NCBI GenBank assembly: GCA_016464795.1
Contig: JAEKNN010000005.1
Coordinates: forward strand, 65,483 to 129,482
Reading direction: 5' to 3'
Length of the DNA: 64,000 bases
DNA from: Candidatus Amunia macphersoniae
GTDB taxonomy: Bacteria; Chloroflexota; Dormibacteria; Aeolococcales; Aeolococcaceae
Under the pieces are notes generated by a model, which saw only the letters and a program-made list of their open reading frames with translations, did not search any database and was not told the DNA's origin. The position numbers and the translations under genes were made by a program. Positions 34,549 through 56,188 of the stretch are shown piece by piece (the stretch's first letter is position 1; each line of letters begins with the position of its first letter).

Positions 34549-35661
34549 TCAACTGCCAGCTCCGCGCTGCGCTGGGGCACCGGGCCCGAACTCCCGGCTC
34601 GCCCCTGATGACAATGACCTCAGGGCCGTCTCGAGAACGTCGGCTCCGCGGCGCAGCTCGTCGATGTCGATGGACTCGTGCGGCGTGTGGTCGAGGCTGC
34701 AGTCGCCGGGGCCGTACACGGCCGCGTCACACCCCCACCGGGGGAGTACGACGTTGAGGTCCGAGGTCCCGGTCTTGCTGGTGTACCGCGGTCTTCCGCC
34801 GCTGGCGGCGACGCCTCTGGCCAGCGCACGCGCCACCGCGTTGCCGCGAGAGACGGCCACAGCGTCGCAGGCCGACTCGACCTGCACGCGCGCCTCCTTC
34901 ATCAGCGCCGCGACGCGCGCTGCGATGTCCTCGACGGCGACGCCCATGGGCATGCGCAGCTCGATCCCCGCCACCGCATGCTCGACGGTGCCGTTGTCGT
35001 TTGACCTCAGGGTGTTGACCCGAACCTGCACGCGGTCGACGGCGCGCTCGCCACCGGTCGGCAGCGAGCGCTGCAGCTCGGCAAGCCCCGCCACCAGACG
35101 GTCGGCGGCACCGGCGTGGGGCCCCGCGTGGTGCGCGGACTGGCGAGTGACAGTGGCCGTCAACCGCACGCAGCCGCGGTAGCCGGTGGTGACCGTGTCC
35201 CAGCCACTGGGCTCGAGGACGATGAGGTGTGACGGCGGCTTGCGGTCGCGCAGATACCGCGCGCCCAACGACGGACCCTCTTCGTCACAGGCGGCGATGA
35301 CTGTGATCCGCCGTCCGATGGGGCGTGGCAAGCGCGACACCGCCGCCAGAGCCGCTGCCAGCGGCCCCTTGGCGTCGACAGCCCCGCGTCCGTGCAGCCT
35401 GCCGTCCTGCTCGCGCACCTCGATGTGTCCGGGCACCGTGTCGAGGTGGCCGAGCAGCACGATCTCGTCCTCAATGGGCCCGTCGCCCCAGATCATCACC
35501 AGGTTGCCGGCCCCGTCGCGCTGCGCGTGATATCCGGCCTCCCGTGCACGGTGCAGCAACCGCGTCGCGGCCGCGTCCGTGTCTCCCGTCACCGAGGGGA
35601 TGCGCAGCAGCTCGTCGAGCAGGGTCAACGGGTCGAGCGCGAGGGTGACCGCCGCCGTCAT
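34549..35661 (-). CDS. lysK: M20-family metallohydrolase, [LysW]-lysine hydrolase (ArgE/LysK-like)
   Basis: LLGHLDTVP metal-binding His/Asp block, ACDEEG, and a dimerisation domain. The start, inferred at MTAAVTLALD, overlaps the lysX stop (ATGA). The longer tool ORF is an upstream extension that overlaps lysX. Confidence 0.78.
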   Translation of the reverse strand: MTAAVTLALDPLTLLDELLRIPSVTGDTDAAATRLLHRAREAGYHAQRDGAGNLVMIWGDGPIEDEIVLLGHLDTVPGHIEVREQDGRLHGRGAVDAKGPLAAALAAVSRLPRPIGRRITVIAACDEEGPSLGARYLRDRKPPSHLIVLEPSGWDTVTTGYRGCVRLTATVTRQSAHHAGPHAGAADRLVAGLAELQRSLPTGGERAVDRVQVRVNTLRSNDNGTVEHAVAGIELRMPMGVAVEDIAARVAALMKEARVQVESACDAVAVSRGNAVARALARGVAASGGRPRYTSKTGTSDLNVVLPRWGCDAAVYGPGDCSLDHTPHESIDIDELRRGADVLETALRSLSSGASREFGPGAPAQRGAGS

Positions 35662-36545
35662 CCGCTCAGCCCTGCGAGAACGCCGTCCGAAGCTGCCTGC
35701 CCAACCCTGCCTCCCACCTGGTCGCGAACGTGGGCGAGCGTGTACTCGACGATGCGCCCCGCGATGTCGACACCGGTCACCGCCTCGGAGTTGCGGAACT
35801 CCATGGAGTGGTTGACCTCGCTGACCAGCAGGCGCTTGCCATCCTCGAGCAGGTCGACGGCGAGCAGCCCTCCTCCCACCGCGCCGGCGGCGCGCAGTGC
35901 AACATCGGCGATAGCTGCGCTGACGGGGCGGTTGCGGGTGCTCGCGCCCCTGGCGGTGTTGGTGATCCAGTGCTCGGAGAGCCTGTCGACAGCGCAGATC
36001 ACCTCGCCGCCGGCAACGAACGCACGGATGTCGCGGCCCGGCTTGGCGACGTGTTCCTGCACGTAGTACACGTGATGTGCCGGCGAACCGAGGGTTGCCT
36101 TGTGGTCGAGCAGCGCCTCGGCGGCGTCGCGGTCGTTGACCCGCGCCAGGAGACGCCCCCACGACCCCACCGGTGGCTTGATTACCGCCGGATAGCCGAC
36201 GGTCTCGACGGCCTTCAGCCCACCCTCGACCGAGAAGGCCACCACTGTTCGCGGCACCGGAACCCCGGCGGCGGCGAGCAGCGCGGTGGTCACCACCTTG
36301 TCTGCACAGTTGGCGACCGCGCGGTGCTGGTTCACGGTGATGACGCCGCGACTCTCCAGCAGCTGGAGGACCGCCAGGGCATGGGACTGTTGCAGGCAAC
36401 GGTCCAGGACCACGTCCCATCGCGGCGTGTCCGCGTGCGTGTCCACCAGCAGATGGCGCACGTCGACCACCTCGACGGCCACCCCACGTGCCGAGAACGC
36501 CGCCAGGATCAGCTTCTCCTCGACACGCACGCGTGACACCAGCAT
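35658..36545 (-). CDS. lysX: RimK-type ATP-grasp ligase, alpha-aminoadipate--LysW ligase
   Basis: ATP-grasp blocks (GYPAVIKPPVGSWGRLLARV, LAVDLLEDGKRLLVSEVNHSMEF). ATG at 36545 (MLVSRVRVEEK). Located immediately downstream of lysW. Confidence 0.85.
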   Translation of the reverse strand: MLVSRVRVEEKLILAAFSARGVAVEVVDVRHLLVDTHADTPRWDVVLDRCLQQSHALAVLQLLESRGVITVNQHRAVANCADKVVTTALLAAAGVPVPRTVVAFSVEGGLKAVETVGYPAVIKPPVGSWGRLLARVNDRDAAEALLDHKATLGSPAHHVYYVQEHVAKPGRDIRAFVAGGEVICAVDRLSEHWITNTARGASTRNRPVSAAIADVALRAAGAVGGGLLAVDLLEDGKRLLVSEVNHSMEFRNSEAVTGVDIAGRIVEYTLAHVRDQVGGRVGQAASDGVLAGLSG

Positions 36546-36633
36546 GGCGACGCGCGGGTCACTCACCCCAGTCCTCCTCACGCACGCGTGACACCAGCAT
36601 GGCGACGCGCGGGTCACTCACCCCAGTCCTCCT
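36524..36633. repeat. Perfect 55-bp direct tandem duplication (2 copies) spanning the lysW 3' end / lysX 5' end junction
   Basis: The 55-nt unit CACGCACGCGTGACACCAGCATGGCGACGCGCGGGTCACTCACCCCAGTCCTCCT occupies 36524-36578 and repeats exactly at 36579-36633. Confidence 0.85.
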
Positions 36634-36781
36634 CCTCGGGCGGGGCGAGCACCAGCACCGGCGGTTGCAGAGCGGTCACCTCCAGGTCGGCTCCACAGTC
36701 GGGGCAGGGGACAACCTCACCCACCACCGTCCGCTCGTCGAGCGGAACGGCGGCGTCGCACTCCGGGCAGGGCATTGTCAT
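36614..36781 (-). CDS. lysW: LysW amino-group carrier protein (zinc-ribbon, C-terminal EDWGE tail)
   Basis: MTMPCPECDAAVPLDERTVVGEVVPCPDCGADLEVTALQPPVLVLAPPEEEDWGE. Features are the CxxC...CxxC ribbon and the hallmark C-terminal EDWGE. Confidence 0.9.
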   Translation of the reverse strand: MTMPCPECDAAVPLDERTVVGEVVPCPDCGADLEVTALQPPVLVLAPPEEEDWGE

Positions 36782-37278
36782 GCCCGGCTCTCCTCGAGGG
36801 CCGCCCACCCGGAGTCGTGAATCAGCTCGACCAGCCCGCCCGCGTCGGCGATACGCACCGCCAGCTGGGACGGGGCCTCGCCGTCGAAGCGGCGTCCGCC
36901 GCTGATCACAGTGCCGGTGCGAAGGTCGACCTCCACGCTGTCGCCATCGACGATGGCGGCCGCAGCTGCCGGGCAGCGAATCACCGGCAGGCCAATGTTG
37001 ACGGCGTTGCGCGCGAAGATGCGCGCGAAGCTGGCAGCAACCACTGCCACCACACCTGTCTCGCGGATCGACACCGGGGCGTGCTCACGCGAGGAGCCGC
37101 AACCGAAGTTGCGGCCCGCGATGATGACGTCGCCAGGTTGCACGCCGGCGGCGAAGTCCGGCCGCGCCTCGCAGAGGCAGGCGTGCGCCAGCGTCTTGGG
37201 GTCGGTGGTGAGGTTGAACCGGCCGGGCATGACCGCGTCGGTGGAGACGCCATCGCCAAGCACCCATGCACGTCCCAT
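36778..37278 (-). CDS. hacB: Homoaconitase / 3-isopropylmalate dehydratase small subunit (LeuD-like)
   Basis: MGRAWVLGDGVSTDAVMPGRF...IIAGRNFGCGSSREHAP is the LeuD fold signature. The true gene is about 166 aa, and the longer tool ORF is an upstream extension. It overlaps the lysW start. Confidence 0.85.
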   Translation of the reverse strand: MGRAWVLGDGVSTDAVMPGRFNLTTDPKTLAHACLCEARPDFAAGVQPGDVIIAGRNFGCGSSREHAPVSIRETGVVAVVAASFARIFARNAVNIGLPVIRCPAAAAAIVDGDSVEVDLRTGTVISGGRRFDGEAPSQLAVRIADAGGLVELIHDSGWAALEESRA

Positions 37279-38513
37279 CAGCGAGCACTCCGTGGATCGG
37301 TGATGCAGCCCGCGACAGCTGTGGCGGCCGCCACAGCGGGGCTGGTCAGGTAGATCTCCGCGTGTGGGCTGCCCATGCGCCCGGGGTAGTTGCGATTGCT
37401 GGTGGAGACGACACGTTCGCCGGCGGCGACCACGCCGTGTTGCCGGCCGAGACACGGTCCGCAGCCCGGATTCATCACCAGCGCACCCGCCTCGACGATG
37501 GTCTCGATCCAACCCCGGCGCAGTGCCTCTGTGTAGATGCGCCGCGACGCCGGCACCACCACCGTGCGGGTGTTCGGATGCACGGTGTGCCCCGACAGAT
37601 ACCGCGCGATCACCTCCATGTCCTCGAGACGGCCGTTGGTGCAGCTGCCGATGTAGACCTCGTCGATCGGTGTGCCCGCGACGTCGGCGATGTCGTGAAC
37701 GTTGTCGGCGGCCGGGGGCATGGCGATCTGCGGTTGCAGGTGAGTGACATCGACGTGCAGCGTGTCCGCGTAGCGCGGTGAGCGCGGCTGCGGGATGGGC
37801 ACGCCGTCGATCGGCGTGGTCCCCTCCAGGGTGGTCTCGTCGACCTCGCACAGCCCCGTCTTGCCGCCCATGTCTGCGGCCATGTTGGCGAGGGTGAGGC
37901 GCTGGTCGAGGGTCATCCGTGCCACGGTCTCGCCACCCCATTCGACGGCCATGTAGTCGGCACCGTCGCCGCCGATGCTCCCGAGCACGTGCAGGGCCAC
38001 GTCCTTGGCGGTCAGCGGCGCCCGCAGCTCTCCGGTGACCTCGACGCGCAGTGTCTGCGGAACCCTGAACCAGGTGCGCCCGGTGGCCAGGATCACCCCC
38101 ACGTCGGTGCTGCCCATGCCTGTCGAGAAGCAGCCCAGGCCGCCGTAGGTGGTGCTGTGCGAGTCGGCGCCGACGACGATCCCGCCCGGCCGTGCGTAGC
38201 CGCGCTCGACCATGATGATGTGGCAGATCCCCTCCGCGAAGAGGTTGCGGACCTGATGATCTGCGGCGAACCTGCGGATGCGCTGGTGCAGCTCGGCCGC
38301 GGCCACGGTTGCCGCCGGCATGACGTGGTCGAAGACCAGCACCACCCGCTGCGGGTCGTGCAGTGGCATCTCCATGCGTTCGAATGCCTCGATTGCCAGC
38401 GGGGCGGTGACGTCGTGGGCGAAGGCGCAATCGACAGGCGCGACCACTGTGTCGCCCGCGCTCACTGAACGCCCGAGCCGGTTGCCGATGATCTCCTCGA
38501 CGAGGGTTCCCAT
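37278..38513 (-). CDS. hacA: Homoaconitase / 3-isopropylmalate dehydratase large subunit (aconitase family, LeuC-like)
   Basis: Aconitase-family Cys ligands (GADSHSTTYGGLG, IGSCTNGRLED, NPGCGPCLG). The start is inferred at MGTLVEEIIG. Confidence 0.85.
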   Translation of the reverse strand: MGTLVEEIIGNRLGRSVSAGDTVVAPVDCAFAHDVTAPLAIEAFERMEMPLHDPQRVVLVFDHVMPAATVAAAELHQRIRRFAADHQVRNLFAEGICHIIMVERGYARPGGIVVGADSHSTTYGGLGCFSTGMGSTDVGVILATGRTWFRVPQTLRVEVTGELRAPLTAKDVALHVLGSIGGDGADYMAVEWGGETVARMTLDQRLTLANMAADMGGKTGLCEVDETTLEGTTPIDGVPIPQPRSPRYADTLHVDVTHLQPQIAMPPAADNVHDIADVAGTPIDEVYIGSCTNGRLEDMEVIARYLSGHTVHPNTRTVVVPASRRIYTEALRRGWIETIVEAGALVMNPGCGPCLGRQHGVVAAGERVVSTSNRNYPGRMGSPHAEIYLTSPAVAAATAVAGCITDPRSAR

Positions 38514-38517
38514 CTCC

Positions 38518-39645
38518 TCAGGCCCCCGCCGACGCGCGCAGCAGCGCGTCGACCTCGTCGTCGCGCAGGAGCCGTTCGCCCGCATGGCGCTTGACCTCGG
38601 CGGTGACGCGGCGCAGCCAGGTGTCGTCACCGGCAATTCCCAGCGCGGCCGCCCGCTGGCGCACCGCGTGGCGCCCCACCAGTTGATGGTTGACGAGCAG
38701 GCGGCGCTCGATGCCGAAGCGCTCTGGGGCAAAGGGCTCGTAGCTGCGCGGGTCTCCGAGCACCGCCTTGGTGTGCATCCCGGCCTTGTGGTGGAACGCG
38801 TAGGGGGAGGTGATCGGAGCGGTGAGCGGGATGTCGACGTCGAGGATCCCCGCGACCATGGCATCGAGCGCAGCCAGCCGTTCCAGTGCGTAGTGGTCAA
38901 CCAGCTCGGGCTGCACGGTGTGCAGCCGGGCGATCAACCCGGAGAGCGGGACGATGCCATTGCGCTCACCGATGCCCAGGACCGTGGTGTCGATGTGCGT
39001 GGCACCCGCCTGCAGCGCGGCCAGCGCGTTGGCCACCGCACAGCCGTTGTCGTTGTGGGCATGGAACTCGATGTCGCAGTCGACAGCATCGCGGAGCTGG
39101 GTGATCAGGGCGGTGACCTGCGCGGGTGTGGCGATGCCGACAGTGTCGGCGAGGCCGACGCGATCGACCCCGAGCGCGGCAACGGCGGCGAGGATGCGGA
39201 GCAGGTCGGCCGGCTCGGTGCGGAAGGAGTCCTCGCAGCTGAAACGCACCTCGAGCCCGGCGGCGCGGACCAAGGCGATGCAGTCGGCCGCAGCCACCAC
39301 GATGTCGTCGAGCTCCAACCCGTGGGAGTTAGACCGCAACCAGGACGAGGTGCCGAAGAGCAGGTCGACACCGCCCACACCGCAGTCGATGGCGAGGAGC
39401 ACGTCGTCGACAACGCAGCGTGTGTGCGTGAGCACTATGGCGCGCAGCGGCAGGGCTGCGATCTCGCGGCAGGACCTTTGCGCGGTGGGTGACGCCACCG
39501 GCGTGGTCAGCTCGATGTGCTCGACCCCGAAGTCGTCGACCGCGTGGGCGATCTGCCGGCGTTGGGCGAGGGTGAAGTGGGCGCCGGCGAACTGTTCACC
39601 CTCACGGAGGGTGGACTCGATGATGGAGAGGCGGCGGATTGGCAT
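38518..39645 (-). CDS. hcs: Homocitrate synthase (short LeuA/NifV-family enzyme without the LeuA regulatory domain)
   Basis: IIESTLREGEQ N-terminal motif of the DRE-TIM metallolyase family, plus HAHNDNG and ERNGI motifs. It is 375 aa and heads the lysW operon. Confidence 0.8.
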   Translation of the reverse strand: MPIRRLSIIESTLREGEQFAGAHFTLAQRRQIAHAVDDFGVEHIELTTPVASPTAQRSCREIAALPLRAIVLTHTRCVVDDVLLAIDCGVGGVDLLFGTSSWLRSNSHGLELDDIVVAAADCIALVRAAGLEVRFSCEDSFRTEPADLLRILAAVAALGVDRVGLADTVGIATPAQVTALITQLRDAVDCDIEFHAHNDNGCAVANALAALQAGATHIDTTVLGIGERNGIVPLSGLIARLHTVQPELVDHYALERLAALDAMVAGILDVDIPLTAPITSPYAFHHKAGMHTKAVLGDPRSYEPFAPERFGIERRLLVNHQLVGRHAVRQRAAALGIAGDDTWLRRVTAEVKRHAGERLLRDDEVDALLRASAGA

Positions 39646-39686
39646 GTGGATGAGTCCGATCTGTGGTGATGACGATGCAGTGGGAG

Positions 39687-39714
39687 AAACAAAAAAGAAC
39701 CCCCGCGGGGGTTC
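39687..39714 (-). terminator. Rho-independent terminator-like hairpin (GAACCCCCG-CGGGGGTTC followed by a U-tract on the minus strand)
   Basis: Perfect 9-bp GC-rich inverted repeat at 39697-39714 with an A6 run at 39691-39696 on the plus strand (U6 on the minus strand). It lies about 150 nt downstream of the cupredoxin-like gene and about 45 nt upstream of the hcs start. Confidence 0.6.
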
Positions 39715-39874
39715 TCTTCAGTGCTTTGGTCGCTTGCTGAGCTGTCGGTCAGCGTGCGGAGTCGCAGGGCACGTCAGGTTTCCCGGCGGGGAACGACGGT
39801 GCCATCGATTTGCGAATCAGGTGCGACATCTGCATGACGATGGCGCCAAGGGTACGGGACGATGGCGCTCTTCG

Positions 39875-56113: not shown

Positions 56114-56188
56114 TCCGGGTTAGCTCAGCGGTAGAGCAGGCGGCTGTTAACCGCAAGGTCACTGGTTCGAATCCAGTACCCGGAGCCA
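56114..56188 (+). tRNA. tRNA-Asn (anticodon GTT), CCA encoded
   Basis: Cloverleaf with 7-bp acceptor stem TCCGGGT/ACCCGGA, D-arm GCTC/AGCGGTA/GAGC, anticodon loop CTGTTAA, T-arm CACTGG/TTCGAAT/CCAGT, discriminator G plus CCA. Closely resembles the E. coli tRNA-Asn body. Confidence 0.9.

Follow-up and report, generated by a model that had tools for sequence, protein, structure and literature searches.

A perfect 55-bp tandem duplication across the lysW–lysX boundary of Candidatus Amunia macphersoniae and the small chimeric reading frame that it creates

A perfect tandem duplication of 55 bp lies across the boundary between lysW and lysX in the lysine operon of an uncultured Antarctic-lineage soil bacterium, one strain of which carries it. 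Both genes are intact despite the duplication. Taken as a whole, the following account seems to us quite probable. The duplication is genuine, recent and strain-specific; coupling between the two intact genes would be relayed through a chimeric mini-ORF created by the repeat; the change would be neutral or mildly deleterious; and the encoded peptide would be a by-product. We see in the duplication most likely a common kind of mutation that the strain tolerates, and not a functional element of a new sort.

The lysine operon and the repeat

The minus strand of the window, by which we mean the whole 64-kb stretch of DNA that was analysed, carries a complete alpha-aminoadipate/LysW lysine operon, hcs-hacA-hacB-lysW-lysX-lysK-lysY-lysZ, whose products include homocitrate synthase and the large and small subunits of homoaconitase. 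The lysW product exceeds the NCBIfam equivalog cut-off for LysW/AmCP proteins, has the CxxC...CxxC Zn ribbon (MTMPCPEC...CPDC...EEEDWGE) and the EDWGE end, and shows full identity to MBJ7608004.1, the NCBI entry from Ca. Amunia macphersoniae. LysX scores above the TIGR02144 cut-off, contains the GSWGR motif ('VGSWGRLLA') and has lysW as its neighbour in an AAA-pathway operon; its 295-aa version, from the ATG at 36545, is MBJ7608003.1 of the metagenome-assembled genome (MAG) "Candidatus Amunia macphersoniae" (Dormibacterota, Aeolococcales). Since the two accessions are consecutive, nothing is annotated between lysW and lysX at NCBI. Elsewhere in the operon, stop and start codons overlap by 4 nt at hacB/lysW (36778-36781), lysX/lysK (35658-35661) and lysK/lysY (34549-34552), which suggests that translation is chained along the entire operon. 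In an Rfam scan of the full window, a tRNA at 56114-56185 (plus strand) was the sole match above the gathering score; near the operon there was neither a lysine riboswitch nor any other known RNA element or leader.

Table 1. Features at the lysW–lysX boundary, in coordinates of the window
Feature	Coordinates	Strand	Description and basis
lysW, 55 aa, amino-group carrier protein	36614..36781	-	Intact; ends EEEDWGE*; TIGR01206 54.4 bits against a cut-off of 53.2; last 21 nt lie inside copy 1
Copy 1 of the 55-nt unit	36580..36634	-	GAGGAGGACTGGG + GTGAGTGACCCGCGCGTCGCCATGCTGGTGTCACGCGTGCGT; upstream in the direction of transcription; identical to copy 2; TRF period 55
Copy 2 of the 55-nt unit	36525..36579	-	Gives full-length lysX its native 5' end and ribosome-binding site; sister L092 equals the window minus one unit
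GGAGG, Shine-Dalgarno-like	36628..36632	-	Read from sequence; lies within lysW (codons EEED), with the mini-ORF GTG 6 nt downstream
GGAGG, duplicated	36573..36577	-	Read from sequence; 6 nt upstream of the lysX GTG 36566
Chimeric mini-ORF, probable 20-aa form	36559..36621	-	Predicted; GTG start (36621); ORF list and GTG-start model
13-aa reading of the mini-ORF	36559..36600	-	MLVSRVREEDWGE; internal ATG; from the sequence, frame shared with the 20-mer
lysX, probable true extent, 302 aa	35658..36566	-	GTG 36566; TIGR02144 306.2 bits against a cut-off of 275.6; start from alignment, codon pattern and L092 gene call
Incidental 319-aa ORF	35658..36617	-	GTG 36617, in GTGA overlap with the lysW stop; ORF list

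Direct base-by-base comparison of the window shows the two head-to-tail 55-nt copies to be identical, each base equalling the one 55 nt further on over 56 consecutive positions (36524-36579), and TRF reports a period-55 array of 2.1 copies at 36517-36634. Two adjacent identical 55-mers cannot have arisen by chance, and direct comparison found no other perfect tandem duplication of period 10-1000 in the 64-kb window. A first reading of this DNA from sequence only had placed a perfect 55-bp tandem duplication at the lysW-lysX junction (36524-36633), with zero mismatches between the copies. Both analyses confirm the repeat, the comparison confirms the perfect match, and the earlier coordinates were at most one base off.

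Read along the minus strand, lysW ends ...CCC GAG GAG GAG GAC TGG GGT GAG TGA, with its stop at 36616-36614. There follow 13 nt and then ATG CTG GTG TCA CGC GTG CGT GAG GAG GAC TGG GGT GAG TGA (36600-36559); the two copies meet as ...GTGCGT/GAGGAGGAC... After this mini-ORF the identical 13 nt recur, followed by ATG CTG GTG TCA CGC GTG CGT GTC GAG GAG AAG..., which opens the 295-aa ORF (36545). The order proposed from sequence only, in which lysW is followed by a 13-aa frame from ATG 36600 to TGA 36559 and then by the lysX ATG at 36545, is therefore that found in both the sequence and the ORF list.

Short tandem duplications in bacteria arise by replication slippage or by microhomology-mediated illegitimate recombination, and the present case is a new instance of this well-known type of mutation. 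Like others of its kind, it consists of identical head-to-tail copies of tens of base pairs, its ancestral allele is found in a close relative, and its boundary falls in a locally repetitive, GAG-rich stretch. Unlike them, it has exact microhomology of just 1 nt (G) at the unit boundary, so that the direct-repeat signature is weak, and its unit spans an overlapping gene boundary, so that no gene is disrupted. The boundary lies within an imperfect 8-nt match of 6/8 identity, GAGGAGGA in lysW versus GTCGAGGA in lysX. Slippage or another route of illegitimate recombination is plausible.

Presence in other assemblies and absence from relatives

It is useful to ask how well the repeat stands apart from the assembly in which it was found. 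Its source is a MAG, its copies have zero mismatches, and no assembly in the searched collections spans both of them (the 295-, 302- and 319-aa versions of LysX were looked up). These points would fit a genome that is truly single-copy, in which the MAG assembler or a chimeric read made the second copy. Logan assemblies speak against this. Logan contigs are built from a k=31 de Bruijn graph in which each 31-mer occurs once per accession and singleton k-mers are discarded, and a 55-bp tandem duplication must break such a contig at two defined nodes. A k=31 simulation of the duplicated window places these breaks at 36605, as the end of the upstream contig, and at 36553, as the start of the downstream one. 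Among the real contigs, SRR31090145_44623 matches the window with 100% identity over 39781..36605 and ends exactly at 36605; SRR31090145_12164, also 100% identical, starts at 36553; and SRR24198227_22722, from a separate run and again 100% identical, starts at 36553 as well. By comparison, the contig of a single-copy sister strain (L092), which serves as a control from the same Logan pipeline, passes through the junction unbroken. Breaks at 36605 and 36553 in both runs mean that the junction 31-mers are present at least twice in the reads of each run. Thus, beside the MAG assembly, the copy-to-copy junction is present in the reads of two runs, possibly not independent of the MAG libraries, on evidence that is indirect but specific. 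Going by SRA numbering, the numbers of SRR31090145 and SRR24198227 are presumably later than those of the MAG.

An assembly artefact, which the sequence-only reading had offered as an alternative, is barely credible given that two other runs, put through a different, k=31 assembler, break where the junction forces them to. The duplication is genuine, as judged from contig breakpoints rather than from direct read mapping. A copy number of two rather than three comes from the MAG assembly alone, and the population may be a mixture of one-copy and two-copy cells. SNPs between co-occurring strains were considered as a cause of the Logan breaks and rejected: across the unit, the sister strain does not differ from the window, and two runs would both need SNPs precisely at 36604 and at 36554/36523. 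The contig SRR24198227_22722 spans just 1483 nt and has its other end at 35071, within lysK, a point past which the contig of the other run extends. Its shortness points to lower coverage of that sample or to a variant that co-occurs in it.

The sister strain also preserves the ancestral form of the junction. L092, a 21-kb Logan contig from SRR22405878, was found by homology search through its 97% identical LysX (P0016), and it shares 96.1-97.3% nucleotide identity with the window over 8.9 kb. It crosses the junction with one copy, and its sequence is exactly that of the window minus one 55-nt unit. Identical head-to-tail copies and a sister allele that equals the duplicated allele less one unit are the marks of a recent tandem duplication. 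All 12 Dormibacterota relatives that are more distant than L092 are single-copy. Within a LysX-based scan of one genome per species, the junction occurs once, as ...GAGGAGGAGGAYTGGGGTGAGTGA followed by 13 nt and ATGCT..., in each of the five closest Dormibacterota, whose LysX identity is 70-81%. Since L092 and these 12 relatives carry one copy, the duplication is recent and strain-specific and arose after the split from L092. The comparison with sister genomes for which the sequence-only reading had called thus upholds its suggestion of a very recent duplication. That the MAG and two further runs share the allele could be a sign of something more lasting than a transient mutation, although the runs are perhaps not independent.

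The LysX-based scan gave 80 loci in all. Neither a junction duplication, as sought with TRF, nor a second xWGE* tail occurs in any of them. The exact core of the unit had 0 matches in JGI metagenome contigs, and a degenerate pattern of the junction found seven loci there, each single-copy. A period-15 array that TRF reported beside the LysX start of one locus (L065) was inspected and holds no real duplication. A small ORF at the position of the mini-ORF is absent from 13 of 13 close relatives and from 80 of 80 LysX loci, and it therefore does not behave as a conserved uORF or leader peptide would.

The sister contig differs from the window at the other end of lysX as well. A 1-nt indel separates ...GGGCAGGCAGCT... 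in the window (35658-35700, minus strand) from ...GGGCAGTAGCT... in L092 (4860-4910). As a result, the LysX of the window gains 12 residues relative to that of L092 and its gene overlaps lysK at an ATGA, and the lysX stop of L092 lies 31 nt before lysK.

The start of lysX and translation across the junction

How the duplication affects expression depends on where lysX begins. We hold with good confidence that its start is the GTG at 36566, which would overlap the lysW stop (GTGAGTGA) and give an ancestral overlap of 8 nt. In all 12 relatives, the frame that opens at the GTG within ...TGG GGT GAG TGA (GTG AGT GA...) is stop-free into the ATG. Across these relatives, the codons of what had been described as a 13-nt spacer are GA[C/G]; CCG/CCA/GTG/GTC/GTT; CGC/CGG/CGA; GTC/CTC/ATC/GTG; and GCC/GCG/GGC, encoding D/E, P/V, R, V/L/I and A/G. 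All third positions vary, second positions are nearly fixed, and the Arg codon shows synonymous changes only. Because this substitution pattern resembles that of coding sequence, the supposed spacer most likely belongs to lysX, as the 5' portion of its coding region. In more distant Dormibacterota, the LysX start ATG aligns within the spacer stretch (MRIG-LLCSR); in alignments with the T. thermophilus LysX structures (PDB chains 1uc8, 3vpd), residue 2 of these pairs with residue 6 of the 302-aa LysX; and the Logan gene call on L092 has lysX overlapping lysW by 8 nt. Since both the codon patterns of the relatives and the homology to LysX proteins of solved structure favor the GTG, the NCBI start at ATG 36545 is probably mis-annotated, 21 nt too short.

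Under the GTG-start model, the duplicated unit most likely consists of 13 nt of lysW (GAGGAGGACTGGG) and the first 14 codons of lysX. The sequence-only reading had composed it of the lysW tail, a 13-nt spacer and seven lysX codons; the coding pattern of the spacer, the structure alignment and the L092 gene call make it likely that the unit holds 14 lysX codons instead. Its account of the mini-ORF fares similarly. The frame and the EEDWGE tail were given correctly, and the likely product is not the 13-mer, which is the internal-ATG version, but a 20-mer from the GTG, MSDPRVAMLVSRVREEDWGE, in which MSDPRVAMLVSRVR (LysX residues 1-14) is joined in-frame to EEDWGE*, the LysW tail. The stop of the mini-ORF, TGA at 36561-36559, overlaps the lysX GTG at 36566.

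These features suggest how the operon would accommodate the repeat. In the ancestor, the lysX GTG would have overlapped the lysW stop (GTGAGTGA) and been served by the GGAGG inside the EEED codons of lysW. The duplicated unit would run from that GGAGG to codon 14 of lysX, so that copy 1 would complete lysW and copy 2 would give lysX its full native initiation region, which is why both genes are intact. The mini-ORF, in turn, would have a ribosome-binding site like that of lysX and a stop/start overlap like that of lysW. Ribosomes most likely translate it and pass to lysX by termination-reinitiation. Operon expression would thereby be roughly preserved, the peptide being a by-product, and the duplication, not itself selected, would most likely be neutral and otherwise mildly deleterious. 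Its tolerance would follow from its having almost no effect on expression of the operon.

Coupled gene pairs have been studied in E. coli. There, 15 nt from the end of the upstream gene are enough for termination-reinitiation, which depends strongly on distance and is almost abolished by gaps of ~20 nt (Huber et al. 2019, 2023; PMC6728339, PMC10666635). The lysW stop and the lysX start are now 47 nt apart, and with no relay ORF in that gap the two genes would be expected to be uncoupled. Like the coupled overlapping pairs of Huber et al., the ancestral lysW/lysX pair would have an 8-nt overlap and a Shine-Dalgarno sequence inside the upstream gene, and the mini-ORF repeats the last 21 nt of lysW (18 coding nucleotides plus the stop), more than the 15 nt of E. 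coli. Unlike those pairs, this locus, where coupling is a prediction, now has two stop/start overlaps in a row, separated by a relay ORF of 20 codons. The GTGAGTGA overlap and a GGAGG 6 nt upstream, the sequence features of a coupled pair, are present at both the lysW/mini-ORF and the mini-ORF/lysX junctions. Coupling is thus probably relayed from lysW to the mini-ORF and on to lysX, as the overlaps indicate, and the recreated stop/start overlap makes it plausible that the mini-ORF keeps ribosomes coupled.

The strong distance dependence of coupling also means that a second step of termination-reinitiation could lower lysX output. Either the relay ORF or the loss of the 8-nt overlap might then have been selected for a changed LysW:LysX ratio, and the recurrence of the allele in several runs would be in keeping with such tuning. 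However, the native initiation region of lysX is wholly kept and equally accessible: RNA folding gives its start a probability of being unpaired of 0.37 with the duplication and 0.40 without it, no meaningful change. No relative has acquired the duplication independently, and nothing distinguishes tuning from neutral persistence. We consider adaptive tuning of expression improbable, and neutral persistence of a relayed operon remains the preferred reading.

The duplication creates a further, longer frame. The GTG at 36617 opens the 319-aa ORF of Table 1 and is in frame with lysX only because 55 leaves a remainder of 1 on division by 3; in the single-copy ancestor, if the sequence is followed by hand, the frame would reach a stop after 17 codons. 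The potential 319-aa LysX would have a Cys/His-rich N-terminal extension (MTRASPCWCHACVRRTGVSDPRVA). The 319-aa ORF has no match on record in the searched collections, and the frame looks incidental.

The chimeric peptide and the significance of the duplication

The sequence-only reading had also proposed that the mini-ORF product might mimic the tail of LysW. In its fullest form, this idea holds that the 13- or 20-aa EEDWGE peptide is bound or aminoadipoylated by LysX, serves as a mini carrier, competitive flux regulator or decoy, and is maintained by selection. Several observations give it substance. The last six residues are identical to those of the LysW tail, the translated peptide ending EEDWGE* with a terminal Glu; this LysX has the GSWGR motif, which is reported to recognise EDWGE; the peptide has a good ribosome-binding site; and the allele occurs in three data sets. 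If the idea were true, a function would explain the persistence of the allele in a natural population.

The comparative evidence points the other way. The duplication is absent from the 97% identical sister and from all 12 other relatives, a second xWGE* ORF occurs in 0 of 80 loci, and the copies are undiverged, so that they hold no readable trace of selection. At either length the peptide has no Cys and no Zn-ribbon globular domain, and the enzymes that modify AmCPs are reported to rely on that domain in addition to the tail (PMC9303977). The peptide is unconserved and has no counterpart in the 80 related loci; tail mimicry is unsupported and, in our view, highly improbable. A new micro-protein that has the LysW tail but no carrier domain, onto which LysX would load or by which it would be occupied as a brake or side branch on lysine synthesis, is just as far-fetched.

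Comparison with known carriers sets the peptide apart in the same way. Like the LysW/ArgW AmCP proteins (TIGR01206), it ends in EEDWGE, the terminal Glu of which is the attachment site on LysW. Unlike them, it is unconserved and lacks the Zn-ribbon domain, its N-terminal half being the first beta-strand region of LysX. Thus, it is not a member of the LysW/AmCP family. A conceptual likeness, and no closer one, exists to the pearlin (PEARL) carrier peptides, short peptides whose C-terminus is a scaffold for amino-acid chemistry; in contrast to the mini-ORF product, PEARL peptides are conserved, belong to dedicated clusters, are recognised by their C-terminal sequence alone and undergo different chemistry (PMC9303977).

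Knowledge of lysine biosynthesis is left unchanged by the duplication, which bears on other questions. The breakpoints of k-mer assemblies can be used as a stand-in for read-level validation. Whether LysX can recognise the EDWGE tail by itself is a question for which the locus provides a ready-made test. More broadly, it is a clean natural example of how a short tandem duplication that spans the boundary of two overlapping genes restores the ends of both and can therefore persist. By separating two overlapping genes and creating a chimeric micro-ORF between them, such a duplication represents one route to the resolution of gene overlaps and to the origin of small ORFs.
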